This document shows, in pieces, positions 6,689 to 45,383 of a DNA stretch of 64,000 nt; positions within the stretch are counted from its first letter, which is position 1; every line of letters begins with the position of its first letter. The DNA comes from an uncultured Fibrobacteraceae bacterium (GTDB taxonomy: Bacteria; Krumholzibacteriota; Krumholzibacteriia; LZORAL124-64-63), in NCBI GenBank assembly GCA_964420395.1, contig CAYQTJ010000004.1:2506-66505 (forward strand), given 5' to 3'. Below the pieces are notes generated by a model. The model was not told where the DNA came from, ran no database searches, and saw only the letters and a list, made by a program, of their open reading frames with translations. Position numbers and translations under genes: made by a program.

Positions 6689-8041
6689 TCAGAGCAGGCG
6701 GGCCGCGAGGCTCGCGAGTTCGCTGCGCTCGCTCTTGGCGAGCGTGATGTGGCCGTAGATCGCCTCCTGCTTGAACCGCTCCACGACGTAGGTGAGTCCG
6801 TTGCTCGACGCGTCGAGGTAGGGATTGTCGATCTGATAGGCGTCGCCGGCGAGGATGACCTTGGAGCCGGTGCCGGCCCGGCTGACGACGGTCTTCACCT
6901 CGTGCGGCGTGAGGTTCTGGGCCTCGTCGATGATGATGAACAGCTTGGGCAGGCTCCGCCCGCGGATGTAGGTGACCGCCTCGACCTCGATCAGTCCCGC
7001 ATCGAACAGGTACTGCACCTTGCCGGCCGATTTCTCCATCTCCGGATCGACCAGGAACTGCAGGTTGTCGTAGATCGGCTCCATCCAGCTCTCGAGCTTC
7101 TCGTCCTTGGAGCCGGGCAGGTAGCCGATGTCGCGGCCGAGCGGCATGATCGGGCGCGACACCATGATCTTGCGATAGCTCTTCTCCTCGGCCACCTGGT
7201 GCAGGCCGACGGCGAGGGCGAGCAGGGTCTTGCCGGTGCCGGCCTGGCCGAGCATGGTCACGAGCTGGATGTCGGGGCGCATCAGCAGTTCGAGGGCGAA
7301 GCGCTGCTGCAGGTTCAGCGGCTGCAGGCCCCAGGGGCGCGCCGCCTCGTGCTTCAGCGGCTCGACCCGCGCCGTGTCCCGGCGATAGATCCCCAGGGCG
7401 GTGTGCTTGGCGTTGCCGGCGGCGCGCAGCAGCACTCCCTCGTTGGGCAGCAGCGGCTCGGCCGGGGCGCACGGCTCGCCGCGGTAGAAGGCGTCGACGG
7501 CGGCGTCGGGCACCTCCAGCTCGCGCCAGCCGGTGTAGAGCTCGTCGAAGTTGACCGTGCTGCGCTGCAGGTCCTCGGCGACGAGGCCGAGGGCATCGCC
7601 CTTGACGCGGGCGTTGATGTCCTTGGTGACGAAGACCACGTCGGCGCCGTGGGCTTTCAGCCAGAGGCCGGCGGCCAGGATCCGGTTGTCGGGGATGCTG
7701 CCGTCGAGGCCGCGCGGCAACTGGTCGACGTAGGTGTCGACCAGCACGAAGAGGCGCCCGCCGTGGGGCAGCGGCACCCCTTCGCGCAGGTTGCCGGCCG
7801 CGCGCAGGGCGTCGATCTGCCGGATCACCCGCCGGGCGTTGCGGCCGCGCTCGTCGTTCTCGCGCTTGAACCGGTCCAGTTCCTCGAGCACGTCCACCGT
7901 CAGGATGATGTCGCGCCGCTCGAACGCCTCGAGGGCCGTGGCGTCGTGCAGCAGGACATTGGTGTCGAGCAGGTAGCAGCGCCCGCTCAGCTTGGCGAGG
8001 CTGGCGCCGTTGGCCCGGGTGACCGACGTCGAATCGGACAT
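6689..8041 (-). CDS. PhoH2-type protein (N-terminal PIN nuclease domain fused to a PhoH-like ATPase)
   Basis: CYLLDTNVLLHD (PIN) and …LGQAGTGKTLLALA… Walker A with the PhoH C-terminal region. Confidence 0.85.
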   Translation of the reverse strand: MSDSTSVTRANGASLAKLSGRCYLLDTNVLLHDATALEAFERRDIILTVDVLEELDRFKRENDERGRNARRVIRQIDALRAAGNLREGVPLPHGGRLFVLVDTYVDQLPRGLDGSIPDNRILAAGLWLKAHGADVVFVTKDINARVKGDALGLVAEDLQRSTVNFDELYTGWRELEVPDAAVDAFYRGEPCAPAEPLLPNEGVLLRAAGNAKHTALGIYRRDTARVEPLKHEAARPWGLQPLNLQQRFALELLMRPDIQLVTMLGQAGTGKTLLALAVGLHQVAEEKSYRKIMVSRPIMPLGRDIGYLPGSKDEKLESWMEPIYDNLQFLVDPEMEKSAGKVQYLFDAGLIEVEAVTYIRGRSLPKLFIIIDEAQNLTPHEVKTVVSRAGTGSKVILAGDAYQIDNPYLDASSNGLTYVVERFKQEAIYGHITLAKSERSELASLAARLL

Positions 8042-8268
8042 GGTCCCTCCATGGCAGAGAGCAGCGACCGGCGTGGCCGCGCCCGTTCCGTATCGGCCGA
8101 ACGGCGGGCGGATTGAGCCGTCCGGGGACCGCCAGCCCCCGAACGGGCTCAGGCGGTGGTGGCCGGGGCCGATTCTAGTAGATTGTGCCCCTTTGCGGGA
8201 CGAGAATCCGCGCGGGCGCCGGCCTGGCGGTCGCGCGGCGCGGGGGGACAGTCAGCCGAGGAGGGATC

Positions 8269-9666
8269 ATGTCCGGGGAAGCCTCGAAGTCGGATTACAT
8301 GCGGCCGTTCGCGGACGGGGTGGTGGCGTCGCCGGAGGAGCGGTCGGCGCTGCTGGAGCGGATGCAGCGGGACGGCGTCCGGTTCCTGCGCCTGATCTTC
8401 ACCGACATCATGGGCCAGAACAAGAACGTGGAGGTTCCGGCCAGCCAGTTCGCCAAGGCGCTGCAGGGCGAGATCATGTTCGACGGCTCCTCGATCGAGG
8501 GCTTCAGCCGCATCGAGGAGTCCGACATGCTGCTGGTGCCCGATCTCACCTCCTACGCGGTCTTCCCCTTCGACGGCGACCAGGGCAAGGTGGCGCGGCT
8601 GATCTGCGACGTCTACAACGCCGACCGCACGCCGTTCGCCGGCTGTCCCCGGCTGGCCCTGCGCCGGACGTTGCAACTGTTCGCCGAACACGGGCTGGCG
8701 CCGGTGTGCGGGCCGGAGCTCGAGTTCTTCCTCTTCCAGCGCGATGCCGCCGGGGATCCGACGGTGCGCACGCACGACGCCGGCGGCTACTTCGACCTGT
8801 CGCCCGTGGACCGCGGCGAGGAGGCGCGCCGCGAGATCGTCAACGCGCTCGAGGCCATGGGCTTCGAGATCGAGGCGGCGCACCACGAGGTCGCGCCGGG
8901 GCAGCACGAGATCGACTTCAAGTACGCGGGGGCGCTCGAGACGGCCGATCGCGTCACCACGTTCCGGCTGATCGTCAAGAAGGTGGCGTTCGACTACGGC
9001 CTGCACGCCACCTTCATGCCCAAGCCGATCCGCGGCATCAACGGCTCCGGCATGCACACGCACCAGTCGCTGTTCCGCACGGCTGGCGATCACGGCAACG
9101 CCTTCTTCGATCCGGCGGCGCCGTTCCAGCTGAGCGAGATCGCCCGGCACTACATGGGCGGCATCCTGGCGCACGCGCGCGCCTTCGTGGCCATCACGAA
9201 TCCCCTGGTGAACTCGTACAAGCGGCTGATGCCGGGCTACGAGGCGCCGGTGAACGTGGCGTGGTCGGAGCACAACCGGTCGCCGCTGCTGCGCGTGCCG
9301 GCGCGGCGCGGCGTCGGCACGCGGGTCGAGGTGCGCGTGCCGGATCCGAGCTGCAACCCGTACCTGGCGTTCGCGGTGATGCTCCGCTCCGGGCTGGACG
9401 GCATGGAACGCCGGCTCGATCCGGGCCCGCCGGTGAACCAGAACATCTTCGAGATGAGCGACCGCGAGAAGCGGCGGCTGAAGATCACGCAGCTGCCGGC
9501 CAACCTCAAGGAGGCGATCGACTGCCTGCGCCGGGACGCCGTGATGCGCGAAGTGCTCGGCGAGCACATCTTCACGCACTTCCTGGAGGCCAAGGAGGCG
9601 GTCTGGGCCGACTTCAACGCGCAGGTCCACGAGTGGGAACTGGAGCGCTATCTCGCGACCTACTAG
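8269..9666 (+). CDS. glnA: Glutamine synthetase, type I
   Basis: FTDIMGQNKNVEV…, HHEVAPGQHEIDFKY, NGSGMHTHQSLF, NSYKRL, and SPLLRVP…R motifs. Start at ATG 8269, preceded by GAGGAGGGA. Confidence 0.9.
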   Translation: MSGEASKSDYMRPFADGVVASPEERSALLERMQRDGVRFLRLIFTDIMGQNKNVEVPASQFAKALQGEIMFDGSSIEGFSRIEESDMLLVPDLTSYAVFPFDGDQGKVARLICDVYNADRTPFAGCPRLALRRTLQLFAEHGLAPVCGPELEFFLFQRDAAGDPTVRTHDAGGYFDLSPVDRGEEARREIVNALEAMGFEIEAAHHEVAPGQHEIDFKYAGALETADRVTTFRLIVKKVAFDYGLHATFMPKPIRGINGSGMHTHQSLFRTAGDHGNAFFDPAAPFQLSEIARHYMGGILAHARAFVAITNPLVNSYKRLMPGYEAPVNVAWSEHNRSPLLRVPARRGVGTRVEVRVPDPSCNPYLAFAVMLRSGLDGMERRLDPGPPVNQNIFEMSDREKRRLKITQLPANLKEAIDCLRRDAVMREVLGEHIFTHFLEAKEAVWADFNAQVHEWELERYLATY

Positions 9667-9693
9667 CGGTCGCCGGAGGGGGGGCGGGCCGTC

Positions 9694-10125
9694 GTGCCGC
9701 TGATCGGATTGCTGGCGGTGGCGACCGGGCTGGCCACGCAGGTGGCCAAGGTGCTCGTGTCGTCGTGGCGGCGCGGACGGCCCGACTTCTCCCTCCTGCT
9801 GGCCTCCGGCGGGATGCCGAGTTCGCACACGGCGACCGTGACCGCCCTCGCCCTGTTCGTCGGCAGCGGGTCGGGCTGGGGCGGCCCCCTCTTCTCGGTG
9901 ACGCTGGTGTTCGCGGGCTACGTGGTCTTCGAGGCGACCGGGCTGCGGCAGGAGGTGGGCAAGCAGGCCCGCGTCCTGAACGATCTGGTGGACGCGCTGA
10001 TCGCCACCCACACGCTCGATCGCGGACGCCTGCGCGAACTGACCGGCCACACCTGGGGCGAAGTGGCCGGCGGCCTGCTCTGCGGGGTCGCGGGGTGGCT
10101 TCTGGGACGGCGTTTCCTGCCGTAG
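9694..10125 (+). CDS. Divergent PAP2 / acid-phosphatase-vanadium-haloperoxidase-related membrane protein (DUF212)
   Basis: …GGMPSSHTATVTALA… motif in a small multi-helix protein. Confidence 0.7.
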   Translation: MPLIGLLAVATGLATQVAKVLVSSWRRGRPDFSLLLASGGMPSSHTATVTALALFVGSGSGWGGPLFSVTLVFAGYVVFEATGLRQEVGKQARVLNDLVDALIATHTLDRGRLRELTGHTWGEVAGGLLCGVAGWLLGRRFLP

Positions 10126-10153
10126 CGCCCGCGTCGCGCGCGGGCGAATCCGC

Positions 10154-10181
10154 TTGACACGCGCCTCCTCTCACCTAAGCT
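10154..10181 (+). promoter_or_regulatory. sigma70-like promoter (TTGACA-16 nt-TAAGCT) upstream of the ParA-CBM48 gene
   Basis: Read directly. It follows a hairpin (CGCCCGCG-5 nt-CGCGGGCG) after the DUF212 stop. Confidence 0.4.
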
Positions 10182-10294
10182 CCGCGGGAATGGCCGGTCC
10201 GGCGGACGGTCGGGGCCGTCCGTCCGCGGCCGACCGGGGGTGATCGGCCGGTCGTGCCGCGCCGCCACGGCGCGGGTGCGGAAAGGACGGGGTC

Positions 10295-11368
10295 ATGAGA
10301 ATCATCGCCCTGGCCAACCAGAAGGGCGGCTGCGGCAAGACGACGGTCGCCACCAATCTCGCCGCCGCGCTCGCCGAGTCCGGGCAGCGGGTGCTGCTGT
10401 TCGACAACGATCCGCAGGGGCACGCCACCCTCGCCAGCGGCCTGGGCGAGGGGGATTTCGCCGCCGGCGCGTACGATCTCTACCTCACCCTGGACGCGCG
10501 CGTCGAGGAGGTCCGGCGGACGGTCGCGCCGAACCTCGACCTGGTTCCGGCGGGGATCGAACTGAGCGCCGTCGAGCAGGCGCTCGCCGGCGAACCGGGT
10601 CGCGAGTGGCGCCTGCGCCGGGCGCTGGACCGTTCCTCCCTGCCCTACGATGTCGTGCTGATCGACTGCCCGCCCAGCGTCGGCCTGCTCACCTTCAACG
10701 CCCTGCTGGCCAGCGGCGAGGTGATCGTTCCGGTGGACGCGAGCGTGCAGAGCGCGCAGGCCGTGCGCAAGTTCCGCGAAACCCTGACGGTCATCGACGA
10801 GCGACGGGGCCACCAGGCCCGGCCGCGCCTGCTGCTGTCGAACCACGATCCCCGTTCGCGGTTCGCGCGCGACTTCGCGGCGGATCTCGCCCGGGACTTC
10901 GGCGACCTGCTGCTCGACACCGTGGTCCACCACACCGTGCGTCTGAAGGAGGCCGTCGCGGCCGGCCTGGCCGTGGGACGGCTCGACGCCGGCTCGCGGG
11001 GGGCGCGCGACTTCCGGAGCCTGGCGGCGGAACTGCTCGCGGCCGGCGCGGGCCTGGCCGATCCGGCGGCGTTCCCGTTGCCACCGGCGGCGGGCGGGCC
11101 GCTCCTGACCCCCGCGGGGGTGCGCTTCGCGGCGCGCTTCCCGGAGGCCCGCGCCGTGCGGGTTACCGGGTCGTTCACCGACTGGGCGGCGGAGGGGGAG
11201 CCGCTCACGGCGAAGGGTGACGGAGAGTGGGAGGCCGTGCTGCCGGTGCCGCCGGGGCGCTACGAGTACCGCTTCATCGTGGACGGCGACTGGCTGCCCG
11301 ACCCGCAGAACGCCGAGGCCGTGCCGAACGACTTCGGCGGCGTGAATTCCCTGCTGGTCGTGCCGTGA
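10295..11368 (+). CDS. ParA/Soj-family deviant Walker-A ATPase with a C-terminal AMPK-beta/glycogen-binding-type CBM48 domain
   Basis: N-terminus MRIIALANQKGGCGKTTVATNLAAALA…DNDPQGHAT (ParA). C-terminus VRFAARFPEARAVRVTGSFTDWAAEGEPL…GRYEYRFIVDGDWLPDP…GGVNSLLVV (AMPK1_CBM/CBM48 pattern). Confidence 0.8.
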   Translation: MRIIALANQKGGCGKTTVATNLAAALAESGQRVLLFDNDPQGHATLASGLGEGDFAAGAYDLYLTLDARVEEVRRTVAPNLDLVPAGIELSAVEQALAGEPGREWRLRRALDRSSLPYDVVLIDCPPSVGLLTFNALLASGEVIVPVDASVQSAQAVRKFRETLTVIDERRGHQARPRLLLSNHDPRSRFARDFAADLARDFGDLLLDTVVHHTVRLKEAVAAGLAVGRLDAGSRGARDFRSLAAELLAAGAGLADPAAFPLPPAAGGPLLTPAGVRFAARFPEARAVRVTGSFTDWAAEGEPLTAKGDGEWEAVLPVPPGRYEYRFIVDGDWLPDPQNAEAVPNDFGGVNSLLVVP

Positions 11369-11381
11369 GATCGGGACGAAC

Positions 11382-12242
11382 GTGGCCGTCGAACTGACCC
11401 CCCGCAACCACGACATCCGCACCGTCGTCGACCACTTCCTCGAACCTGCGGTCGCCCCGGCGGGGCGCGCCCGGGGGGGGACGCGGGCCTATCGCTTCGC
11501 CGTGGCCGCCGGGGCCCACGGCTTCCTGGCCGCCTGGACCGCCGCGGGGCTCGCGCGGGCAAGCCTGCTGCTCGGCGGCAGCGGTGCCCGGCAGGCCCCG
11601 ATGCGGGTCACCCTCGAGGAGTGGCACCGGCAGGCGTGGGCCGCGGCGCCGTTCCTGGGGGGGGGCGACCGGGAGCGGCTGCGCACGCTGTTCCGCCCGG
11701 AGGCGTTCGGCCACGCGGAGGGGGACGCGCGGCGCTGGCTGGGCGGCGTGGAGGTGGTGCCGCCGCGCTTCGTCGGCCGATCCGGCGGCGGGGAGCCGGG
11801 ACCGGTCTGCGCCTGGATCAATCTGGGCGGGGTGGCGGGACGGTCGCTCGCGGCCCTCGAGGCGGCCCATGCCTGGGACGGGGGAGGTCTCTTCGACGGC
11901 GGCCTGGACGGGCTCGTGTGGTGCGTGCGCGCGGAGGAGGCGGGGGCGCTCGGCACCGCCTACGGCCTGGGCCGGCTGGCGGCGGCGCTGCGCCCGCGCC
12001 AACTGAAGCTGCTGGTCTACGCGGATGGGGCGCGGACCGGTGCCGCGCGGGACCGCTGGCGGGAACTGGCCGGGCTGGCCGCCCCCGCCGCGGCGATCGA
12101 ACTGCTCGCGGAGGCCTGCGATCCCCGGAGCGCGGCGGCGGAGGGGAGCGCCAGCCCGTTCGCCTCCCTGGCCGCCAGCCTGGCGCTCGGCGCGGAGGGG
12201 GCCAGGCGGTCGGGCGCCGCGGCGCGGGAGGCCGGCGCGTGA
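11382..12242 (+). CDS. Hypothetical protein (no family recognised), immediately downstream of ParA-CBM48
   Basis: GTG start 13 nt after the parA stop. Third positions are almost all G/C across the whole frame. Confidence 0.55.
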   Translation: MAVELTPRNHDIRTVVDHFLEPAVAPAGRARGGTRAYRFAVAAGAHGFLAAWTAAGLARASLLLGGSGARQAPMRVTLEEWHRQAWAAAPFLGGGDRERLRTLFRPEAFGHAEGDARRWLGGVEVVPPRFVGRSGGGEPGPVCAWINLGGVAGRSLAALEAAHAWDGGGLFDGGLDGLVWCVRAEEAGALGTAYGLGRLAAALRPRQLKLLVYADGARTGAARDRWRELAGLAAPAAAIELLAEACDPRSAAAEGSASPFASLAASLALGAEGARRSGAAAREAGA

Positions 12243-12556
12243 ACGGCGAGGCGGGAGCCGTGCAGGCGGGGCTGGTCCGCGCCGGACCGCTGCGGGAGGA
12301 CTTCCGCCGCTTCCTGGAACTGCTGGGCGAGCTCGACCCCGGTGTCACGCTGCACGAGGAACCGTTCCGGATCGTGGTCCGCCTCCACGGGCGCCCGCTC
12401 TGTGACTGCCACCCTCAATCCCACGCCGTGCACGTTCGGCTTGGCCGGGAGGCGGGGGGCGAGGTACGCTGTCGCACGCATGAGGACTTTGTCGACATCC
12501 TGGCGCGGTTGCTCGGCGAGCTGCGCGGCGCGGCCCGGCCGCTGCCGCCGGTCTGA
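12240..12556 (+). CDS. Hypothetical small protein (about 105 aa)
   Basis: GTG 12240 overlaps the preceding stop (GTGA). High GC3. It is the C-terminal part of track ORF 11621..12556, whose N-terminal part is an off-frame shadow. Confidence 0.5.
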
Positions 12557-12586
12557 ACCGGACCGCGTGCGCGCGGCAGGCGCGGC

Positions 12587-13975
12587 GTGACGCGGGCGGG
12601 CGCGGCGCAATTCCTGTACGGCGGTTGCCTGCTGACCCTCCCGCTGATCGGGTGCGATCCGGTGCGCCTGGCGAGCGGGGCCGATCTGGGCGCCGGCTTC
12701 CAGCCGGCCTATCTGTTCCTGGCCGGGGCGACCCTGCTCGCCTGCGCCGCGACCGGGCGGCGGCGGCTGTGGGCCGGCTGGGCCGCGGCCCGTCCGTGGA
12801 GCACGCTCGGCCTGTGGGCCGCCGGGGCGGTGGCCGTCTCGGCGCTCGGCCTCGTGATCCGGCCTCCGGCGGGGGGGCCGGAAGCCGCGGCGCGGCTGTG
12901 GCGCCTGGGCAAGCAGTTCGGGCAGCTCCTGATCATGTTCACGTTCGTGGCCTGGCCGCTGCTCTGGACCCGGGGCAGCGCCCGCTGGGAGTGGACCCGC
13001 CGGCTGTTCGGCCTCGCCCTGCTCGGGCAACTGCTCTACGGGCTGGTGCAGGGGGCCCTGTTCGGCCACGCCTGCGCGCCGTTCGCGGCCCTGGAGCGGG
13101 TCTTCACCGCCAATCCTGCCATCCTGTCCGGCTCCGAGGAGCTGTACCTCGGCCACGGCTTCACCGGAATCCCCCGCCTGCGCGGCACCTGCTGCGAGCC
13201 GCTCTATCTCGGCAATTACCTCCTGCTGGCGCTGCCGGTGGTGCTGTTGCCGGGCGCACGGCATCGTCACCAGGCACTGGCGCTCGGCGGAGGCCTCCTG
13301 CTGCTGCTGACCTGGTCGCGCGGCGCCTGGCTGGCGGCGGGCGGCGCAGCCGTCGTCTGGGCGTTGCTGGCGGCGCGCGCGGGGCCTCGCCGGCGACCGG
13401 AGGCCGGGACGGAGTCCCCGCGGCGGTGGCTCATCGTTGCGGCGCTGTCGGGCATGGCGGTCGCGTTGCTGCTCTGGCGCCCCGACCTGGTCACGCTGCC
13501 GGCCCGACGGCTGGCGCAGTCGGTCAACCGCGAGGACTGGTCCAACCTCACGCGCCTCTACTCGATGCAGGCCGCCTGGCGCGCCTTCCTGCTGAGCCCG
13601 GTGGTGGGGGTGGGGTGGGGCCAGTTCGGCTTCCACTTCGTGGGGCTGGTCGATCCCCTCGGGCTGCAGAGCCAGTTCAGCTGGCCGGTCGTCAACTCCT
13701 ACCCGCTCCAGGTCCTCTGCGAAACGGGCCTCATCGGCTTCGCGGTCTTCGTCGGGGGGGCCGCGCTGGTGGCCCGGGCGATCGCGCGGGCGCTGGGCGG
13801 GGGAGGGGGAGTGGCGGGCGTCGAGGCCCGCCGCCGCACCGCCCTGCTCGCGGCGGCGCTCGTCGGGGTCTGGGGGCAGCTTCTGACGTTTTCCCAGTAC
13901 AACCTGCCCCACATATGGGTCGCCCTGGGGCTGCTGCTGGCGGCGACGCGGGAAGCGGAGGCGGGCCGTGGCTGA
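12587..13975 (+). CDS. O-antigen ligase-like (Wzy_C family) polytopic membrane protein
   Basis: About 10 hydrophobic segments and an …LLLLTWSRGAWLAAGGA… motif typical of O-antigen ligase/polymerase family proteins. Confidence 0.6.
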   Translation: MTRAGAAQFLYGGCLLTLPLIGCDPVRLASGADLGAGFQPAYLFLAGATLLACAATGRRRLWAGWAAARPWSTLGLWAAGAVAVSALGLVIRPPAGGPEAAARLWRLGKQFGQLLIMFTFVAWPLLWTRGSARWEWTRRLFGLALLGQLLYGLVQGALFGHACAPFAALERVFTANPAILSGSEELYLGHGFTGIPRLRGTCCEPLYLGNYLLLALPVVLLPGARHRHQALALGGGLLLLLTWSRGAWLAAGGAAVVWALLAARAGPRRRPEAGTESPRRWLIVAALSGMAVALLLWRPDLVTLPARRLAQSVNREDWSNLTRLYSMQAAWRAFLLSPVVGVGWGQFGFHFVGLVDPLGLQSQFSWPVVNSYPLQVLCETGLIGFAVFVGGAALVARAIARALGGGGGVAGVEARRRTALLAAALVGVWGQLLTFSQYNLPHIWVALGLLLAATREAEAGRG

Positions 13976-15152
13976 GCGCCCCCTCGTGCTGCTGGACGCC
14001 CTGCTGGTGCAGCCGGAGCCGACCGGCGTCGGGCGGTCGATCCTGGAACTGACCCGGGCGCTGGCGGCCCGGGACCGGGGCTTCGATTTCGGGCTGCTGA
14101 CCACGCATCCGGAAGCGTTCGCGCCGCTGGAGGGGGTGCCGGGCTGGCGGGTGCTCACCTGTGCCGGCGCTCGCGGCGGCACCCTGCGCAAGGCGCTGTA
14201 CACCCAGTTCGCCCTGCCGGCGCTGGCGACGCGCCTGCGGGCGGCGGTCCTGCACAGCCTGCAGTTCGTGGCGCCACTGAGGCTGCCGTGCCGGAGCGTG
14301 GTCACCGTGCACGACCTGGCCTTCCGCCGTTTCCCGGGCACGGTGGAGGTGCCGCGGCGCTGGTACTACGAGGCCCTGGTGCCGGCGACCCTGCGGCGCG
14401 CCGGCCGGGTCGTCACGAATTCGCAGGCGACCGCGGACGACGTGGCGGCGCTGTTCCCCTCCGTCAGGGGGCGCCTGCGGGTGACCCCCTTCGGCACCCC
14501 CTCCTGGGTCTGGGAGCAGCCGGAGCGGCGGCGGGAGGGGGAGGCCGGGGGTCCGTTCCTGTTCGTGGGGACGCTCGAGCCGCGGAAGAACCTGCCGCGT
14601 ATCCTGGAGGCTTTTCGCCGGTTCCGAAACCGGGCCGAGGCCGCCGGCGGGCCGCCGCCGCCCGTTCTGAGCCTGGTGGGCGGTCGCGGCTGGGGAGATT
14701 CCCCCCTGCGGGAGCCGATCCGGGCCCTCTCGGCGCGGGGGGCGCTGCGGCTCGAGGGGTACTGCCAGCCGGCTCGTTTGTGGGAACTGTACGGCGCGGC
14801 ACGGGCGTTGCTATTTCCCTCCCTTCACGAGGGTTTCGGCTTCCCGATCCTGGAGGCGATGGCGGCCGGCCTGCCGGTCCTGACCGCCGACCGGGGGGCG
14901 ATGCGGGAGGTGGCGGGGGACGCGGCGCTGCTCGTGGATCCCGACGACGTCGAAGCGATCGCCGACGGGCTCGCCCGGCTGGACCGGGACGCCGCGCTGC
15001 GGGCGCGATTGATCGCGCGCGGCAGGGAGCGGGCGCGGGAGTGGTCGTGGGAGCGCACGGCCGCGGCCACGGTGGCGGTTTACGCGGAGTTGGTGGCGGC
15101 GCCCGGTCCCCGCGACGAAATTGCCGTTGCCGCGCCTGAGGATAGCGTTTAG
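13968..15152 (+). CDS. Glycosyltransferase family 4 (GT-B, GT1-type domain)
   Basis: …FVGTLEPRKN…, and FPSLHEGFGFPILEAMAAGLPVLTAD…E (EX7E motif). Confidence 0.85.
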   Translation: MAERPLVLLDALLVQPEPTGVGRSILELTRALAARDRGFDFGLLTTHPEAFAPLEGVPGWRVLTCAGARGGTLRKALYTQFALPALATRLRAAVLHSLQFVAPLRLPCRSVVTVHDLAFRRFPGTVEVPRRWYYEALVPATLRRAGRVVTNSQATADDVAALFPSVRGRLRVTPFGTPSWVWEQPERRREGEAGGPFLFVGTLEPRKNLPRILEAFRRFRNRAEAAGGPPPPVLSLVGGRGWGDSPLREPIRALSARGALRLEGYCQPARLWELYGAARALLFPSLHEGFGFPILEAMAAGLPVLTADRGAMREVAGDAALLVDPDDVEAIADGLARLDRDAALRARLIARGRERAREWSWERTAAATVAVYAELVAAPGPRDEIAVAAPEDSV

Positions 15153-15203
15153 CCTGCCGTAGCGACCAGCCGGCGATCGAGCCGCCAGGACAAGGAGCGC
15201 CGC

Positions 15204-16505
15204 GTGGATAGGGAGATCGTCGCGCTGTTGTGCGGACTGCTGGCGTTCAGCATGTCGTGGCTGGTGCAGCCGCACTTCCGCAACCTCGGCTTCCTCACCA
15301 AGATCGTGGACCATCCCGGCTACCGTCGCTCCCATCTGGAGCCGGTTCCGCGCACCGGCGGCATGGCCATATTCATCTCCTTCTTCTTCACCCTCTACAT
15401 CCAGGAGCGCCTCAGCCTCACGGATGCCATGCCGTGGTCGTGGCTCGGCATCCTGATCGGGGCCGGCCTGGCGATCCTGGCGCTGGGAGTGGGCGACGAT
15501 CGCTTCGGGATCCACGCGGAGAAGAAGCTCTACGGGCAGCTGCTCGTGATCGTGGGGCTGATGCTGTTCGGGCAGCGGCTCGAGGTGGTGAACCTGCCGC
15601 CGTTCGGCGAGGTGAACCTCGGCGGCTGGGCCTGGCCGGTCACCATGCTCTGGTACCTCGGCTTCATCAATTCGATGAACCTGATCGACGGGCTCGACGG
15701 ACTGGCGAGCGGCATCAGCGTGCTGGTCCTGCTCTCGCTCGGCGCGATCTCCCTGGCGGTGGGCGAATTCGTGCCGCTGGTGTGCGCGGCCACGCTGTGC
15801 GGGGCGACCGTGGCCTTCTTCTACTGGAACATCAGCCGGCGCAAGATCTTCCTCGGCGACTCCGGCAGCATGTGGATGGGGCTCGTGCTCGGCACGCTGC
15901 TGCTCGACCTGGGGCGCCGGACGAGCGTGGCGCTGCCGGTCCTGCTGGCGCCGATGGTGGTGCCGATCTGGGACACAGGAACCACGATCATCCGCCGCTG
16001 GCGCAAGCGGGCGTCGATCTTCCAGGCCGACGATTATCACCTGCACCACCGCCTGGTGCGGGTCGGCTTCTCGCCCCGCGCCGCGGTGGCGTTCCTGCTG
16101 CTGATCACCGCCGGCACCGTCCTGTTCGCGATGTCCGATTTTCTGGGCGCGCCGTGGATCGGGATGCCGGCGCTCGGTTGCTGGCTGCTCTCCCTGCACC
16201 TCGAAGCGACGCAGCACCGGCGCAACCGCGCGCTCGGCTTCGACTCGTTCACCGAAATCCTCTACATCCTCGGCTTCGACGACCGGCTCGAACTGCGCCT
16301 CGGGGCGCGGGGACGCAGGGTGGCGGAGATCGTCGACCTCCAGGCCGAGCGGCAGCGCGTGGAACGCACGCTCGCGGCGGCCGTCGGCGGCAGCGCGCCG
16401 GAGCGACTGGCGTCGCCCGCGCCGCGCCGACGCTCGACCAAGGCCGGCGCGGTGGAGGAAGCGGGCGAGGATGTCGTTCTCCCCACTACCCGCGATCTTT
16501 CTTGA
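15204..16505 (+). CDS. Polyprenyl-phosphate N-acetylhexosamine-1-phosphate transferase (MraY/WecA family)
   Basis: …NSMNLIDGLDGLASG…, …FLGDSGS…, polytopic. AAGGAG RBS before GTG 15204. The extra C-terminal tail of about 90 aa is not typical. Confidence 0.8.
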   Translation: MDREIVALLCGLLAFSMSWLVQPHFRNLGFLTKIVDHPGYRRSHLEPVPRTGGMAIFISFFFTLYIQERLSLTDAMPWSWLGILIGAGLAILALGVGDDRFGIHAEKKLYGQLLVIVGLMLFGQRLEVVNLPPFGEVNLGGWAWPVTMLWYLGFINSMNLIDGLDGLASGISVLVLLSLGAISLAVGEFVPLVCAATLCGATVAFFYWNISRRKIFLGDSGSMWMGLVLGTLLLDLGRRTSVALPVLLAPMVVPIWDTGTTIIRRWRKRASIFQADDYHLHHRLVRVGFSPRAAVAFLLLITAGTVLFAMSDFLGAPWIGMPALGCWLLSLHLEATQHRRNRALGFDSFTEILYILGFDDRLELRLGARGRRVAEIVDLQAERQRVERTLAAAVGGSAPERLASPAPRRRSTKAGAVEEAGEDVVLPTTRDLS

Positions 16506-17139
16506 CGACCTGGCGCGGAGCGCCGGCCGACCCGCCCTCGAGGTGGGGTGCGGCGACGGACGCTTCAGCGCCGTGCTCGCGGCCCACGGGGCGCGCCCGT
16601 GGCGGCTCGACCGTCTGCCGCCGCGCCGGGGCACGGTGGCCGACGCCGTGGCCGACGCGCGCGCGCTGCCGCTGGCGGACGGGAGCCTGGGGCTGCTGGT
16701 CGCCGCCAACCTGCTGCGGCACCTCTGGTCGCCCCGCGGCCCGGAGGCGGTGCCCGAGGATTGGCTCCGCTGCATCGCCCCCGACGGCCGGCTCTGGATC
16801 TTCGAGGACGAGCCGGTGTCGCGGCCGCCGGCCGCGCGGCACTACCGGGACGCGATGACCCTGCTGGCGAGGCTCGACCCGGGAGGGCGCCGGCCGCTGC
16901 TGCCGCTCGGCCGGTTCCTGGCGCGGCTGGACGCGGCGGGACGAAGGGACGGCTGGAGGCACGGCATGGCGGTCAACGCCACGCCCGCGGCGGCGCCCGG
17001 AGCGCTGGCGGAGCTGCTCGCCGGGCAGGGGGGTGGGCCCGAGGCGCCCGGCGTCCGGCTGGCGGCCGCCATCCGGCGCGAAGGCCTCAGCTACGGGCCG
17101 TACTGGTGGGCGCGCTGGAGCCGGGAGGAGTCGGCGTGA
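16471..17139 (+). CDS. Class I SAM-dependent methyltransferase
   Basis: Motif I LEVGCGDGRFS and …LLVAANLLRHL…. The start is uncertain: ATG 16471 overlaps the upstream gene by 35 nt. Confidence 0.6.
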   Translation: MSFSPLPAIFLDDLARSAGRPALEVGCGDGRFSAVLAAHGARPWRLDRLPPRRGTVADAVADARALPLADGSLGLLVAANLLRHLWSPRGPEAVPEDWLRCIAPDGRLWIFEDEPVSRPPAARHYRDAMTLLARLDPGGRRPLLPLGRFLARLDAAGRRDGWRHGMAVNATPAAAPGALAELLAGQGGGPEAPGVRLAAAIRREGLSYGPYWWARWSREESA

Positions 17140-18504: not shown

Positions 18505-18753
18505 AATAACCAGATCCGGATTCTGGGGAATCTCACCCGCTTTCCTCGGGACCCGGGCCTGCGCCAGTCAAGACAGCGGGCGCGCCGGGCGCGCCGATGA
18601 GACAGCAACCAGCGCTGGACCGGCGGGCTGGTGCCCCGGCCCATTCGCCATCCCGATCGCGCGGCATGCAGGATCCACGTCGTCTCCGGCCGGGCCGGAG
18701 GCAGCTCCCCTGCCGTAGCCCTATCGCCCACCCCCGTCGTTCGGAGGCCGCGG

Positions 18754-21700
18754 ATGAGATTGCGCCCCGCTCTCCTGGCCCTGTTCCTCTGGGTGATGCC
18801 GGCCCTCACCATCACGCTCTGTTCGAGCCCGCGGGAGGCGTGCGGCGCCGTCTCCGGTAGCGGCGCTCAGCTGCGCCAGGAGGTCACGTTCCCCCTTTCC
18901 CGCTCCGGATGGCCGGTGGCGGGGGAGGTCGGCGCCGCGCTGCTCACCGACGAACCGGGCGATCCGCGGGTGCCTTACCACGACGTCGTGCTGCTGCTCC
19001 CGCCGGGGCGGCGGGTCGCGGAGGCACGCTTCGCTCCTCGCGATCCGAGCGAGCGGGAACTGCCGGCGGCGGTGGTCACCGCGGCCCCGGCGCGGGTTTC
19101 CGCCGGGGGCGAGGTGGCCTGGGACCGGCTGCCGGCCGACGGGCCGGCGTATCCGCCGGCCTGGGGGGAACTGCTGGGCGAGACGGTCTGGCACGGCTAC
19201 CGCCTGGCCCACGTACGGCTCTACCCCTGGCAACTGACGCGGGGGGGCACGGGGACGTGGGACGGCGCACGCGCCGCAGCGGGGATGACGATCGAACTGG
19301 CGCTGGCTCCCGTGGCGGACGGCGGCGGTCGCCGGCGCCCGGCGCCGGAGCCGGACGCCGCGCTCAGGGCGCGGCTGCGGGGGCTGGTGGCGAATCCGGA
19401 CGCCGTCGCCGCCTACCCGCTGCCGGGCGTGGCGGCGGCGCGGGATGGCGCCGGCTTCTCGCCGACCTGGGCGCCGAGCCTGCTGGGCGACGATGTGGCC
19501 TACGTGATCATCACGAGCGCCGCGCTCGCGGCGGAGTTCCAGCGCCTGGCCGATTACAAGACCGCGCGGGGCGTCCCGACGGTCGTGCGCACGATCGAGG
19601 CGATCGTCGCCGCGGCGCCGGCCGGGATCGATCTGCCGGCGCAGATCCGCGCCTATTGCGCCGAGGCATACCGCGACTGGGGGACGACGGCTGTCCTGCT
19701 GGGCGGCGACACGCAGATCGTGCCGACGCGACGGATCCTCAACACGCTATATCCCGCGGGCGAGGGGACCGAGATGCCCGTGGACCTCTACTTCGCCTGC
19801 CTGGACGGGGACTGGAACGCCGACCACGACGAGAAGCTCGGCGAAGCCTACATGAATCCCTACGATTCGGGTGACTGGGCCGATCTGGCGGCCGAACTGG
19901 CGGTCGGGCGGGCGCCGGTCGCCACGGCGGCGGAGGCCGCCGTGTTCGTGGACAAGGTCATGGCCTACGAGGGGGGAACCGTCGCCGCGCCGGCTGGCCG
20001 CGCCCTCTTCCTGAGCGAAGTGCTCTTCCCGAGCGCCTGGACCGTCGGCACCCCCATCACCGACGACGGCGCGACGTACAGCGAGGCGATCATCAACGAA
20101 GTCATGGCGGAGTCGCCCATGCCCCCGGCGGCGACGCGGATGTACGAGGCGACCGCGCTCTGGCCCGGCTCGGTCCCCGAGCGGCGCCTCGCGGTGATCG
20201 ACTCGCTCAACACCGGGCACTTCGGGCTGGTCAACCACATCGGCCACGGTTTCTTCTACAACCTGTCCGTGGGCGATGCGACGCTCGATCTGAAGGATGC
20301 CGCCGGGGTCCACAACGACCCGAGCTACTTCATCCTGAACAGCCTCAACTGCTCCTCGTCCGCCTTCGACTACAACAGCATCCTCGAGCGGCTGGTGCTG
20401 AATCCGGGAGGCGGCGCCGTGGCCACGATCGGCTCGGCGCGCGCCGCCTTCCCGACCACCGCCAGCCAGTACCAGCGGGAGTTCTACGCCGCGCTGTTCC
20501 GCGACGGGATCCGGGAGGTGGGCGCAGCGGTGGCGGCCTGCCGCCTGCCTTTCCAGGGGCTGACCGCCGGGAACACGCCGGAGCGCTGGACGCACATGAC
20601 CCTGACGCTGCTCGGCGATCCGACGCTGGCGGTCTGGACCGCGCCGCCGGTGCCTCTCGTGGTCAGCGCGCCGGACACCCTGCCGCTCGGCGGGCAGGAG
20701 GTCGTCGTGAAGGTGACCCGCGGCGGGCTGGCCGTGGCGGGGGCCATGGTCTGCCTGCTCAAGACGGGCGAGTGCTACGCGCGCGGCTACACCGATGCGG
20801 GCGGGGAGGCCCGCCTGCCGGTCGTGGTGAAGTCGGCGGGGGCCGTCGCGCTGAGCGTGACGGCGGCCGACTCGCGCCCCGCGACGCGGACCCTGCCGGT
20901 GAGCGTCGCGCCGAGCCCGTACCTGAAGGTGACCTCGGTCCAGTTCCGGGATGACGGCACGCTCGGCTCGGTCGGCAACGGCGACGGCCTGCCGGATGCC
21001 GGCGAAACGGTGGCGTTGCTGCCGACCTTCACGAACAGCGGGACGGTCCTGGCCACCGGCGCGGTCTCGATGTCGGCATGGACCCTGACCCCGGGGGCGA
21101 CGCTGCTGTCGACCGCGACCGCCGTGCCGCCGCTGGCGCCCGGCGCGTCCGCGGTCGGCGGGAGCCCGCTGCTGCTGCGTCTCGAGGCCGGCGTGCCGGA
21201 CGGCACCCTGTTCACGGTGCAACTGGCCGCCATCGACGGCGGGCGGGTCTACTTGGACGAGATCTCCGAGCGGGGACGCGCGCCCGACCTGCGGCCGACG
21301 ATCATGACGTGGAGCGACTCGCCCGGGGGGGACGGCGACGGCGTGATCGAGCCCGACGAGGAGATCGTGCTGCGCGTGACGCTCCTGAATCCAGGCGGCG
21401 GGCGGGCCTCCGGCCTGACGGCCACCGTCGAGCCGGGAATCGGACTGACGGTGGTGGATGGCAGCGGCGCCTGGCCCGACATCGCGCCGGGGGGCGAGGC
21501 GACTCCGTCCGACGCGGTGAGCGTGCGCCCCGCCTCGCCGGTGTCGGCCGCCCGCGGCACGCTGGTCGTGCAGGACGCCTTCGGACACGAGTGGCGCCAG
21601 CGCTTCGACCTCACGCCGCCCGAACGGCCGACGGGAGTGACCGGCACCTCGCCCGCCGGCGGGGAGTGCCTCCTGCTCTGGACGCCGAACCCGGAGGCGG

Positions 21701-23562
21701 ACCTCTACGGGTATCACGTCTACCGGTCGCTGCAGCCGAATTACGGCTACGTGCGGCTCACCGCGGAACCGGTCACGGGCGGGAGCTTCTACCGCGACAC
21801 CGGACTCGCCGCGCTCACCCGGTACTACTATCAGATCGCCGCCGCCGACTCGTCGCGGCTGCTGAGCCGCGTCACCTCGACGCTCGGCGTCAGCACGGTG
21901 CCGTCGGAGCAGACCGGCTTCCCGATCGAGCTGCCCGCGGAGACGTCGAGCCATCCGGTCGTCGGAGACGTCAACGGCGACGGCCGGCTCGACGTGGTGC
22001 TGCCGGCCAATTACATCTACGTGTGGGACGCGGATGGGGTGGAACTGCGGAACGGCGACGGCGACAGCCAGACGCTCGGCCCCTTCAACTCCACGGCCGC
22101 CGACTGGGCGCCGGCCGGTGCCACGCTGGCCAACCTGACCAGCCGTCCGGGGCTGGAGATCATCGCCTCGAATCGCACCGCGCGGCAGATCTTCGTCTAC
22201 CAGGGGGACGGCACGGTGGCCGCGGGCTGGCCGCGCACGATGAGCGACTGGAACTGGGCGACGCCGGTGGCGGGGGATCTCGACGGGGACGGCGACCTGG
22301 AGGTCATCGCGAACACCGTCACGGGGACGCTCTACGTCTGGCACCACGACGGCACGGACTTCTTCGACGGCGACGCCAACCCCGCCACGGTCGGGGTGTT
22401 CCAGGTGCGCGTCAACGAGTGGTACAGCTTCTGCTCGCCGGCGCTCGCCGACCTCGACCAGGACGGGAAGCTGGAGATCATCCTCGGCACCCGCTACAGC
22501 GGCACGACGCCGGACGTGCTGATGGCGCTGCGCAACGACGGCACGAACCTGCCCGGCTTCCCGGTCAGCTTCGGCCTCTACGGCGAGACGCTCTGCAGCC
22601 CGGCCGTGGGCGATCTCGACCTGGACGGGCGGCTGGAGATCGTGGTGGTCACCGAGAACGATCGCCTGCAGGTCATCCGGCACACCGGGCTGTCGATGGC
22701 GCCGTTCCCGATCCTCTTCGTCTCCAACAACAACCCCGACGGGCTGAGCACCCCGTCGCCGGCGCTCGCCGACCTCGACGGCGACGGCTATCCGGAGATC
22801 GTGGCGGTGTCGGTCACCGACGCGCTGACCGCCGCGGTGCACGCGGTCAGGCGGACCGGCGTCAACCTGTCCGGCTGGCCGCGGGCGGTGGGGGGGAATT
22901 CGGAATCGTCGCCGGTGGTGGCGGACATCAGCGGCGACGGGCATCCGGACGTCCTGTTCGGCATCGGCGGCGGGGCCGACAGCAGCCCCAACGCGCTCTA
23001 CGCGTGGCGCCACGACGGCGGCGTGGTGCCGGGATTCCCGCTGCAGCTCAGCGGGCCGATCCGCCCGACCCCCTGCCTGACGGACCTGAACCAGGACGGG
23101 GACATCGACCTCGTCTACGGCGGCTGGGACCTGCAGATGCACGTCTGGGACCTGCCGGCGGCCTGGAATCCCGACCTGGCGTTCTGGCCCACCTTCAAGG
23201 GCAATCCGCTGCGCAGCGGCCTGGCCGGCCAGCTGTGGATCACCGCCGTGCCCGGGGGGGAGGACGGCGCCCCGCCGGCGGCGGTCGCGCTCGAGGGGAA
23301 TCGGCCCAACCCGTTCAATCCGCGCACGCGGATCACCTTCGCCCTGCCCGGCCCCGGCGCGGTCCGGGCCCGGCTGACCATCTACGACCTGCGGGGGCGG
23401 CGCGTGGCGCAGCTGGTGGACGGCTCCCTGCGGCCCGGGCGCCACACCGTCGACTGGTACGGGCGCGACGACGGGGGCGGGGCGGTCGCCAGCGGGGTCT
23501 ATCTCTGCCGGCTGACGGCCGGCGGGGTGGTGACGGAGCGCAAGATGACCCTGGTGCGGTGA
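18754..23562 (+). CDS. Secreted multidomain protein: gingipain-like peptidase C25 domain, Ig/FN3-like modules, DxDxDG (FG-GAP/VCBS-type) repeat region and a FlgD-Ig/T9SS-like C-terminal domain
   Basis: Signal peptide MRLRPALLALFLWVMPALT…. C25-like …LLGGDTQIVPTR…DLYFACLDGDWNAD…, catalytic-type NHIGHGFF and LNSLNCSSSAFD. Seven clear xDxDxDGxxE/D repeats. C-terminus NPFNPRTRITF…LTIYDLRGRRV…SGVYLCRL. Start at ATG 18754 after GGAGG. Confidence 0.85.
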   Translation: MRLRPALLALFLWVMPALTITLCSSPREACGAVSGSGAQLRQEVTFPLSRSGWPVAGEVGAALLTDEPGDPRVPYHDVVLLLPPGRRVAEARFAPRDPSERELPAAVVTAAPARVSAGGEVAWDRLPADGPAYPPAWGELLGETVWHGYRLAHVRLYPWQLTRGGTGTWDGARAAAGMTIELALAPVADGGGRRRPAPEPDAALRARLRGLVANPDAVAAYPLPGVAAARDGAGFSPTWAPSLLGDDVAYVIITSAALAAEFQRLADYKTARGVPTVVRTIEAIVAAAPAGIDLPAQIRAYCAEAYRDWGTTAVLLGGDTQIVPTRRILNTLYPAGEGTEMPVDLYFACLDGDWNADHDEKLGEAYMNPYDSGDWADLAAELAVGRAPVATAAEAAVFVDKVMAYEGGTVAAPAGRALFLSEVLFPSAWTVGTPITDDGATYSEAIINEVMAESPMPPAATRMYEATALWPGSVPERRLAVIDSLNTGHFGLVNHIGHGFFYNLSVGDATLDLKDAAGVHNDPSYFILNSLNCSSSAFDYNSILERLVLNPGGGAVATIGSARAAFPTTASQYQREFYAALFRDGIREVGAAVAACRLPFQGLTAGNTPERWTHMTLTLLGDPTLAVWTAPPVPLVVSAPDTLPLGGQEVVVKVTRGGLAVAGAMVCLLKTGECYARGYTDAGGEARLPVVVKSAGAVALSVTAADSRPATRTLPVSVAPSPYLKVTSVQFRDDGTLGSVGNGDGLPDAGETVALLPTFTNSGTVLATGAVSMSAWTLTPGATLLSTATAVPPLAPGASAVGGSPLLLRLEAGVPDGTLFTVQLAAIDGGRVYLDEISERGRAPDLRPTIMTWSDSPGGDGDGVIEPDEEIVLRVTLLNPGGGRASGLTATVEPGIGLTVVDGSGAWPDIAPGGEATPSDAVSVRPASPVSAARGTLVVQDAFGHEWRQRFDLTPPERPTGVTGTSPAGGECLLLWTPNPEADLYGYHVYRSLQPNYGYVRLTAEPVTGGSFYRDTGLAALTRYYYQIAAADSSRLLSRVTSTLGVSTVPSEQTGFPIELPAETSSHPVVGDVNGDGRLDVVLPANYIYVWDADGVELRNGDGDSQTLGPFNSTAADWAPAGATLANLTSRPGLEIIASNRTARQIFVYQGDGTVAAGWPRTMSDWNWATPVAGDLDGDGDLEVIANTVTGTLYVWHHDGTDFFDGDANPATVGVFQVRVNEWYSFCSPALADLDQDGKLEIILGTRYSGTTPDVLMALRNDGTNLPGFPVSFGLYGETLCSPAVGDLDLDGRLEIVVVTENDRLQVIRHTGLSMAPFPILFVSNNNPDGLSTPSPALADLDGDGYPEIVAVSVTDALTAAVHAVRRTGVNLSGWPRAVGGNSESSPVVADISGDGHPDVLFGIGGGADSSPNALYAWRHDGGVVPGFPLQLSGPIRPTPCLTDLNQDGDIDLVYGGWDLQMHVWDLPAAWNPDLAFWPTFKGNPLRSGLAGQLWITAVPGGEDGAPPAAVALEGNRPNPFNPRTRITFALPGPGAVRARLTIYDLRGRRVAQLVDGSLRPGRHTVDWYGRDDGGGAVASGVYLCRLTAGGVVTERKMTLVR
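21950..23130 (+). other. FG-GAP/VCBS-like calcium-binding repeat region (likely beta-propeller) within the first C25 protein; boundaries approximate
   Basis: Repeats GDVNGDGRLD, GDLDGDGDLE, ADLDQDGKLE, GDLDLDGRLE, ADLDGDGYPE, ADISGDGHPD, TDLNQDGDID at roughly regular spacing. Confidence 0.6.
23299..23559 (+). other. C-terminal FlgD-Ig-like / T9SS-type sorting-domain-like module of the first C25 protein
   Basis: NRPNPFNPRTRITFALPG…ARLTIYDLRGRRVAQLVDG…GRHTVDWYGRDDGG…ASGVYLCRLTAGG…KMTLVR. Confidence 0.6.
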
Positions 23563-23609: not shown

Positions 23610-23853
23610 GGACGAAGTCACACCGGAGTGGGGCGCCGTCGGCGCCGCCGCTCCGCTACCACCTCCCGGAGGGCTGGACGACCGCACCTGGGTAACGGGC
23701 AGCAGTGGCGGGCCGGCAGGGCCGGCCCCGCATTGGCAGCAGCGTTCACAGTCCCCCGAGGAGGCATCCGTTTCCTCACGCAGAAGTCGATGAAGACACG
23801 TGCTTCTCGCGGCTCCGGCCGCGAGTTACGTCGCTATTGACCGGAGGGTATGC

Positions 23854-40552: not shown

Positions 40553-40553
40553 G

Positions 40554-45361: not shown

Positions 45362-45383
45362 GGCGGGGCCCGGGGAGGGATCC

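Follow-up and report, generated by a model that had tools for sequence, protein, structure and literature searches.

A 64,000-nucleotide stretch of a contig from an uncultured Fibrobacteraceae bacterium, assigned by GTDB to the Krumholzibacteriota (CAYQTJ010000004.1, positions 2,506 to 66,505; this whole stretch is the window of the text below), encodes a 357-residue protein in which a ParA-type ATPase is fused to a C-terminal carbohydrate-binding module (CBM) of family 48. Judged by profile matches and motifs, this protein is a member of the ParA/MinD family with a CBM48-family C-terminal domain, and it is not a member of the ParABS, McdAB, BcsQ or BY-kinase (bacterial tyrosine kinase) systems. 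Two genes of unrecognised families, here called P2 and P3, follow it on the same strand. The combination suggests, from the sequences compared here, that the bacteria bearing the fusion position or tether glycogen granules, a cargo that has never been reported for the ParA family. The reading that we favour is that of a nucleoid-bound orphan ParA that would hold glycogen through its own CBM and be regulated by P2 and P3; we regard it as plausible, while stopping just short of calling it probable. The cluster comprises the following features.

10295..11368, + strand: ParA-CBM48 fusion gene, an open reading frame (ORF) of 357 amino acids (aa) plus stop (stop at 11366-11368)
10295..11044, + strand: ATPase domain, residues 1-250, a Soj-like ParA, from end-to-end alignment with solved ParA/Soj structures
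10322..10345, + strand: deviant Walker A motif, K10-G-G-C-G-K15-T-T, read from the sequence
10940..10942, + strand: R216, which aligns with the arginine of the Soj 'NVRL(A/S)EA' motif in alignments to Soj structures
11045..11125, + strand: linker, residues 251-277, poorly conserved in the conservation profile
11126..11365, + strand: CBM48/AMPK-beta-type module, residues 278-357, at the extreme C-terminus, above cutoff for PF16561 and PF02922
11382..12242, + strand: P2, a partner gene of an unrecognised family, an ORF of 286 aa with a GTG start at 11382
11400..11441, + strand: N-terminal motif of P2, residues 7-20, here PRNHDIRTVVDHFL, the best-conserved stretch of the P2 family
12239..12556, + strand: P3, a gene of an unrecognised family, an ORF of 105 aa with a GTG start at 12239 and an 80-residue core

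The stop codon of the fusion gene is separated by a 13-nucleotide gap from the GTG of P2, and the stop codon of P2 overlaps the GTG of P3 (GTGA). This layout agrees with an earlier sequence-only reading of the same stretch, in which the two downstream ORFs had been given as 286 and about 105 aa (the latter figure proves to be exact). The window as a whole is about 74% G+C. The fusion, P2 and P3 ORFs have a G+C of 0.92, 0.93 and 0.86, respectively, at third codon positions (GC3) and of 0.51, 0.64 and 0.47 at second positions (GC2), and this position-specific signal supports all three as coding. A scan of 9600-13000 returned no promoter-like site and a single terminator-like site (12692-12708), which is no more than chance expectation. 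No Rfam family and no tRNA was found in the 64-kb window.

ATPase core and predicted glucan-binding module

The ATPase core is, on its sequence, intact and Soj-like. The fusion protein begins with MRIIALANQKGGCGKTT, in which the deviant Walker A motif spans K10-T17, and it matches the Pfam families AAA_31 (PF13614; 2e-43, 148.8 bits against a cutoff of 27) and CbiA (2.8e-18, 66.5 bits against a cutoff of 25.4). The ATPase aligns over its full length with solved structures, namely, 8RAY (5.7e-38), 4PFS (1e-36), Thermus thermophilus Soj 1WCV (9e-34) and Helicobacter pylori Soj (1.8e-27). The signature lysine K10 is kept in all 190 of the family members compared, and the P-loop lysine K15 and the switch and Walker B aspartates (D37, D39 and D124) each in 189 of them; the D37-N-D39-PQ and I-D124-CPP segments match the Soj motifs in the alignment. 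The position of R216 is occupied by arginine or lysine in 171 of the 190 members; the Soj arginine aligned with it we take to be the non-specific DNA-binding residue R189 of Bacillus subtilis Soj, the alignment itself showing the shared motif alone. With the deviant Walker A motif, the aspartates and a profile score above the curated threshold all present, the protein falls within the ParA/MinD (deviant Walker A, SIMIBI) family, whereas a score of 120.7 against a cutoff of 180 for the NCBIfam equivalog ParA_partition places it outside that specific equivalog. Thus, the fusion shares with chromosomal Soj/ParA proteins (1WCV/2BEK, H. pylori Soj 6IUB and ParA 8RAY) an ATPase that aligns from end to end, the deviant Walker A motif with its signature lysine, the DxDPQ switch, Walker B (IDCPP) and the 'VRL.EA' arginine, but differs from them in its C-terminal linker and CBM48 module, in the lack of an adjoining parB and in having neighbours, P2 and P3, that are unrelated to ParB. 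It also lacks a C-terminal amphipathic helix, because the CBM occupies the C-terminus, and a signal peptide, because the sequence opens directly with the first strand of the ATPase.

The C-terminal module meets the profile of AMPK1_CBM (PF16561) at residues 285-356 (1.3e-12, 48.2 bits against a cutoff of 26.8) and that of CBM_48 (PF02922) with 31.3 bits against a cutoff of 22.4. It aligns with the CBM of AMPK beta2 (4Y0G; 3.4e-10) as well as with those of AMPK beta1, SEX4 and LSF1 and with the N-domain of GlgB. The segments VRVTGSFTDW (residues 288-297) and GRYEYRFIVDGDWLPDP (residues 321-337) lie within it. Residues W297, R326, W333 and N351 align with W100, K126, W133 and N150 of AMPK beta1, which are the glucan contacts in structures of the AMPK-beta CBM, and among the 190 members a tryptophan is kept at the first of these positions in 187, arginine or lysine at the second in 185, a tryptophan at the third in 184 and an asparagine at the fourth in 170. 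Both the aromatic platform and the polar glucan-contact positions characteristic of the CBM48/AMPK1_CBM families are therefore present. The module thus belongs to the same family as the CBMs of AMPK beta and of plant SEX4/LSF1 and keeps their Trp, Lys/Arg, Trp and Asn glucan positions; it differs in being carried by a P-loop positioning ATPase rather than by a kinase scaffold or a glucan phosphatase, and its glucan binding is predicted. Since the protein lacks a signal peptide, glycogen or maltodextrin would be the natural ligand of this CBM. Taken over the 190 members, the near invariance of the catalytic, DNA-binding-equivalent and sugar-binding residues in the aligned sequences is the mark of purifying selection on the functions of both the ATPase and the CBM. 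The sequence-only reading had described the protein as a deviant-Walker-A ParA/Soj ATPase with a C-terminal CBM48 domain and had proposed profile searches for both halves: the strings that it quoted are present, and the ParA/CbiA and PF16561/CBM48 matches all pass their curated thresholds.

Spread of the fusion and of its partner genes

An identical protein (P0001, 100% identity) is encoded on a 68.7-kb NCBI contig, and among the best 120 homologue clusters there are at least 120 full-length homologues, every one of which carries PF16561. These are 356-406 aa long (108 of them exactly 357 aa) and share 57-86% identity with the query over 100% of its length; some are encoded on contigs of 1-4.7 Mb. 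An exhaustive search covered 1.84 billion cluster representatives (clusters at 50% identity), and in 130 of the best 150, which were examined, the ATPase is combined with a C-terminal CBM48. Searches of species-representative genomes with two CBM peptide patterns matched 440 stretches, of which 414 encode a relative; the best 80 of the loci so matched all have the fusion, which is full-length wherever the contig is long enough. The named members come from Krumholzibacteriota/-iia, Latescibacterota, Auribacterota, Glassbacteria and Nitrospirota/Leptospirillia. The survey proposed by the sequence-only reading thus places the fusion in several phyla and hundreds of genomes. That reading had also named two findings that would speak against it, namely, a C-terminal domain failing the CBM profiles and a chimera confined to one genome; the profile thresholds are passed, and an assembly chimera is ruled out by the many independent full-length copies on contigs of up to 4.7 Mb. 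Its statement that no characterised ParA has this fusion accords with our literature searches and a term search in the main survey of ParA/MinD cargos, which yielded no mention of a ParA-CBM48 fusion.

Across the best 150 representatives the CBM of the fusions is always at the extreme C-terminus, with a median of 2 residues after it, and the linker that joins it to the ATPase varies from 10 to 362 aa (median 51). In all eight long forms scanned (435-698 aa) the ATPase and the CBM48 are the only domains, at opposite ends of the protein, with no Pfam domain between them. Long-linker forms, such as P0168, P0207, P0309 and other matches of 400-700 aa, have up to about 360 residues without a Pfam domain between their ends, and P0168 and P0309, the two with source names, are from metagenome-assembled genomes of Nitrospirota/Leptospirillia. 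The exhaustive search also returned proteins of other architectures: its top-scoring representative, P0132 (1812 aa), is not a ParA but a giant protein in which 18 stretches are CBM48-like and related to the CBM of the fusion, and 11 other matches have several CBMs and no ATPase.

P2 and P3 diverge too quickly to be traced by tblastn, and their distribution was therefore followed with hidden Markov models (HMMs) iterated on the ORFs of 83 related loci. P2 stands immediately after the fusion in 76 of these loci and P3 was detected in 24, namely, in four closer relatives (L003, L004, L017 and L046) and in a clade whose fusion proteins are 40-46% identical to that of the window; all the matches have the strand and position that are to be expected. 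Thus, P2 accompanies the fusion almost constantly in Krumholzibacteriota and Latescibacterota, and P3 is detected in part of that clade only. The sequence-only reading had asked whether the two downstream genes co-occur with the fusion; they do, P3 less constantly than P2, and neither gene follows the fusion at an Auribacterota locus, L073. As the fusion is kept there without its partners, it is broader in distribution than the three-gene module. In L073 the fusion is followed (7569-10151) by a 247-aa protein with, by eye, a Cys-rich zinc-ribbon-like N-terminal segment and hydrophobic helices, and then by a 594-aa protein.

Where the module is complete, it outlasts its surroundings. A reverse scan of metagenome contigs with a P3 pattern gave 22 loci, and the order ParA-CBM-P2-P3 is found in 14 of the 14 that have a complete or cut ParA-CBM gene upstream. 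In L083, of the Candidatus Krumholzibacterium type, a DUF212 gene, ParA-CBM, P2 and P3 are followed by unrelated genes, and on a Latescibacterota chromosome (L068) ParA-CBM-P2-P3 is retained with ATP synthase subunit genes upstream. In L069 a single 340-aa ORF with a C-terminal P3 domain lies directly after ParA-CBM (7386-8408); if this is a P2-P3 fusion, as it may be, the two proteins would thereby be linked.

Neither P2 nor P3 matches any family in Pfam or NCBIfam, and when 63 sequences of P2 and 24 of P3 were each scanned against Pfam at E<=1, no family was common to more than one member. A word-indexed search with P2 gave only 11 matches, and a search with a concatenated P2+P3 profile gave 14 matches and no relatives of P3. 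This scarcity of relatives made the input for structure prediction shallow, so that the AlphaFold2 (AF2) model of P2, from 16 sequences, is weak (predicted local distance difference test score [pLDDT] 52, predicted template modelling score [pTM] 0.60) and the model of P3 had one sequence as its only input (pLDDT 69). In P2 conservation is highest in the N-terminal peptide, with the consensus R-[RP]-[HR]-H-I-x-x-[IV]-A-H-[LH]-[FY]-L; it is followed by a strand-loop-helix like that of a Walker A region without the lysines, and a glutamate, E80, is nearly invariant (61 of 63). The modelled fold of P2 alternates beta and alpha elements. In a comparison of P2 with ParA by hhalign the expected P-loop region was aligned at a probability of only 1.6%, and the P2 model found nothing in the PDB at E<=0.001 with Foldseek; a degenerate NTPase-like partner is thus a lead offered by the model, unconfirmed by either method. 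The P3 model has a helix, five strands and a helix, a frataxin-like alpha/beta domain that indicates no specific function.

These data bear on another account of the fusion, that it is an ordinary chromosome-segregation ParA with a ParB-parS system encoded elsewhere and a CBM48 accessory of minor consequence. Its best matches are indeed chromosomal Soj/ParA proteins (about 40-45% identity by eye), all the Soj catalytic motifs are present, and the source databases label the protein a 'chromosome partitioning protein'. However, parA and parB normally adjoin, and none of the more than 100 loci has a parB; it is P2 and P3 that are the constant partners downstream, and sugar-binding residues so strongly constrained across phyla do not befit a decorative domain. 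We consider this account very improbable. The absence of an adjacent parB, already remarked on in the sequence-only reading, holds throughout the material searched: Pfam detects no parB adjoining the fusion gene in the window and no ParB domain in the window's larger ORFs, the latter including the downstream genes, and the ParB box II motif (GERRxRA) is missing in coding frame from 1.09 Mb of DNA (the 64-kb window and 105 fetched loci). On these grounds, within the loci searched, the chromosomal ParABS system was rejected as a home for the fusion, parS sites not having been searched for; a parB farther off in the genome may still exist.

Neighbouring genes and the envelope-glycan context

The window proteins were compared by tblastn with 82 related loci. 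The features that flank the cluster, and those that follow P3 in a subclade discussed below, are as follows.

9694..10125, + strand: DUF212, a divergent PAP2-family membrane protein (PF02681, 1.3e-33)
12587..17139, + strand: Wzy_C/O-antigen-ligase-like protein, family 4 glycosyltransferase (GT4), WecA/MraY-like glycosyltransferase and methyltransferase, by Pfam, after a 30-nucleotide gap from P3 and then with overlaps
L093:1342-3098, L087:5088-6832 and L068:8982-9880: solo CBM48/transferase regions that follow P3

The DUF212 gene lies upstream of the fusion in 73 of the 82 loci, including those with only 40-46% identity, at an intergenic distance of about 170-250 nucleotides. This arrangement is conserved across Krumholzibacteriota, and the gene is absent from L068 (Latescibacterota) and L073 (Auribacterota); a literature search on DUF212 found nothing on the family. 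Downstream, the Wzy_C, GT4, WecA-like and methyltransferase genes are found in 42-49 of the 82 loci, all of them among L001-L057 and L072, that is, within the 53-84%-identical group.

Such neighbours, which the sequence-only reading does not mention, raise the possibility that the protein organises an envelope polysaccharide machine in the manner of BcsQ. A membrane glycan complex (the WecA-like and GT4 transferases, the Wzy_C polymerase/ligase and the PAP2-like DUF212 phosphatase) would then be placed or stabilised by the ATPase, and the CBM would bind a nascent or lipid-linked glucan on the cytoplasmic face. The closeness of Wzy_C to P3 and the near abutment or overlap of the next same-strand genes speak for this, as do the frequencies just given for the flanking genes and a match to the Pfam family CBP_BcsQ of 58.7 bits against a cutoff of 21.3. 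BcsQ of the cellulose synthase complexes is likewise a ParA/MinD-family ATPase tied to a polysaccharide. Yet the neighbouring glycan genes of the fusion are not conserved across its family: they are absent after P3 in the distant L083 (Krumholzibacteriota) and L068 (Latescibacterota), where ParA-CBM-P2-P3 is kept, and as the 21-kb loci L001 and L002 are collinear as a whole, adjacency to envelope genes within that group says little. Moreover, the similarity to Soj is much stronger, the NCBIfam BcsQ model (TIGR03371) is matched with 96.9 against a cutoff of 157.85, no bcsA, bcsB, bcsE or bcsR lies nearby, and CBM48 modules bind alpha-1,4/1,6-glucans, not the typical Wzy-dependent heteropolysaccharides. 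The protein was on these scores and neighbours excluded from BcsQ, and we hold a role in an envelope machine of this kind to be improbable. The BY-kinases (Wzc/CapB type) were rejected as well, with TIGR01007 at 38.9 against a cutoff of 108 and a C-terminus that is a CBM48 and not a tyrosine cluster.

A different context is seen in seven loci (L068, L086-L089, L093 and L095), where the next gene after P3 encodes a solo CBM48 protein of 108-111 aa. The two that were scanned, from L093 and L068, match PF16561 with 63-64 bits. In six of the seven loci a glycosyltransferase gene comes next, and L088 ends inside the solo CBM48 gene. The two full-length transferases that were scanned, from L093 and L087, match the starch-synthase catalytic domain (PF08323, 57-58 bits) in addition to GT4 families, and the copy in L068 is a 165-aa fragment with 26.8 bits to PF08323. 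This pairing of a solo CBM48 with a starch-synthase-like gene after P3 in one subclade is a direct pointer towards alpha-glucan, though no more than a hint.

Several other features of these loci may be recorded here. A family of about 190 aa, here X, of unrecognised affinity, whose N-terminus is hydrophobic and whose C-terminus forms a membrane anchor, lies between P2/P3 and Wzy_C in 43 loci (e.g., L002:12088-12654 and L054:8220-8945) and is absent from the window; it has no relationship to P3, and L003 and L046 have both. Farther downstream in the window two tandem ORFs of about 1640 aa each (18631-23562 and 23800-28725, + strand) are found, the first with a Peptidase_C25 (gingipain-type) domain, FG-GAP repeats and a C-terminal FlgD_ig domain, and in L001, L002 and L083 the ParA-CBM cluster likewise has a giant gene of a similar kind downstream. 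The most GC-rich stretch of the window, 40400-45400 (about 78%), has no gene called by the GC3 filter; by eye, its translations include a GmhB-like heptose-bisphosphate phosphatase motif and a heptosyltransferase-like protein, and these are probably ordinary lipopolysaccharide-core genes with extended Ala/Gly/Arg-rich N-terminal reading frames.

A proposed role in the placement of glycogen

The features of the fusion can be brought together in a mechanism in which the ATP-bound protein would dimerise and bind the nucleoid non-specifically, while the two tethered CBM48 modules of the dimer would hold glycogen, to our knowledge the one polymer of alpha-glucan to be expected in the cytoplasm of bacteria. 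This would anchor the glycogen granules to the chromosome, space them along it and let both daughter cells inherit them. A linker that varies so widely in length among the aligned proteins is what might be expected of a tether. P2 would act as a regulator, its conserved N-terminal peptide contacting the ATPase and stimulating hydrolysis; the contact of this peptide with ParA is our inference. Alternatively, the degenerate P-loop-like body of P2 might pair with the ATPase as a dead NTPase and so control hydrolysis and release. P3, the small frataxin-like domain whose gene overlaps the stop codon of P2, would act together with P2.

The nearest precedent for such a system is McdA-McdB, in which an orphan ParA-type ATPase uses the nucleoid as a matrix to distribute carboxysomes, and a small partner of an unrecognised family is encoded next door. 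The fusion, too, is an orphan ParA-type ATPase with an unrecognised partner next door, for which nucleoid-based distribution of a non-DNA body is proposed, and by analogy it may work like cargo positioning of the McdAB type, with the recognition of the cargo fused to the ATPase. In classical ParA systems a partner protein binds the cargo, and the fusion would differ from these and from McdAB alike in carrying this function on the ATPase itself. It differs from McdA also in sequence: the similarity is weak (6NOO, 7e-9 over about 160 residues), and the McdA of beta-cyanobacteria lacks the signature lysine that the fusion has. With no carboxysome or RuBisCO genes in scans of the window, and with P2 and P3 lacking any recognised family, membership in McdAB was rejected. 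The sequence-only reading had proposed that the two downstream proteins are adaptors analogous to McdB. With a cargo-binding module already present on the ATPase, a regulatory role is more likely for P2 and P3 than one as cargo adaptors. P2, at 286 aa and with a low-confidence alpha/beta model, is not the short disordered or coiled-coil protein that McdB is, and its conserved N-terminal peptide and tentatively modelled degenerate P-loop-like fold set it apart further. A parallel for such a peptide might be FlhG-FlhF, where the N-terminal peptide of a SIMIBI NTPase activates a partner NTPase; there, however, P2 differs in lacking the Walker A lysines, in its tentative fold assignment and in having no flagellar context.

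Several observations weigh against the placement of glycogen by this protein. No glycogen genes were found among the scanned ORFs of the 64-kb window, and in the window and its class the cluster is followed directly by envelope-glycan genes (Wzy_C, GT4 and WecA-like) and preceded by the PAP2-like membrane protein, a setting that fits polysaccharide export. The partners are unevenly kept: P3 went undetected by the iterated HMM in the 53-62%-identical loci of Krumholzibacteriia, and the Auribacterota fusion adjoins neither P2 nor P3. A ParA fixed to its cargo also fits poorly with the usual diffusion ratchet, in which an activator bound to the cargo depletes ParA, and suits tethering instead. 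Unless P2 and P3 are likewise on the granule, the fusion could only tether, and neither has a recognisable sugar-binding domain.

In a rival reading glycogen is the signal rather than the cargo. How much glycogen is stored would then decide, through the CBM48, whether a ParA-type ATPase with a role at the nucleoid or in division is sequestered or set free, and chromosome organisation, replication control or the choice of the division site would follow carbon reserves, much as AMPK-beta senses glycogen. The closeness of the ATPase core to chromosomal Soj proteins is compatible with this (Soj also regulates DnaA), and so are a CBM of the AMPK-beta regulatory type rather than of the enzyme N-domain type, a covalent attachment that fits sequestration better than a diffusion ratchet, and a P2 and P3 without cargo-like features. 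In more than 100 loci, however, no division, replication or parB genes adjoin the fusion, and a linker of such variable length resembles a tether more than an allosteric connection. We judge this role in sensing to be unlikely.

Stated in full, our proposal would make this the first active positioning and partition system for a polysaccharide storage granule, present in several uncultured phyla, in which a ParA/MinD ATPase with a CBM48 spreads glycogen over the nucleoid and is itself controlled by P2, as a catalytically dead NTPase-like partner, and by a frataxin-like P3; in this complete form, with every part as described, it is a doubtful one. The fusion has probably gone unnoticed so far because all its named members come from uncultured lineages. 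ParA/MinD ATPases are the general means by which bacteria place large objects such as chromosomes, plasmids, carboxysomes, chemoreceptor arrays, flagella and division sites, and no carbon store is more widespread among bacteria than glycogen, yet we know of no system that positions or partitions glycogen granules. A ParA that itself contains a glycogen-binding module would, if the proposal is true, represent both a new class of cargo and a new design, with cargo binding on the ATPase rather than on its partner. P2 and P3, for their part, are two new protein families tightly linked to the fusion family. More generally, the fusion family is large and conserved, and it opens to test the question of whether bacteria actively position their glycogen granules.

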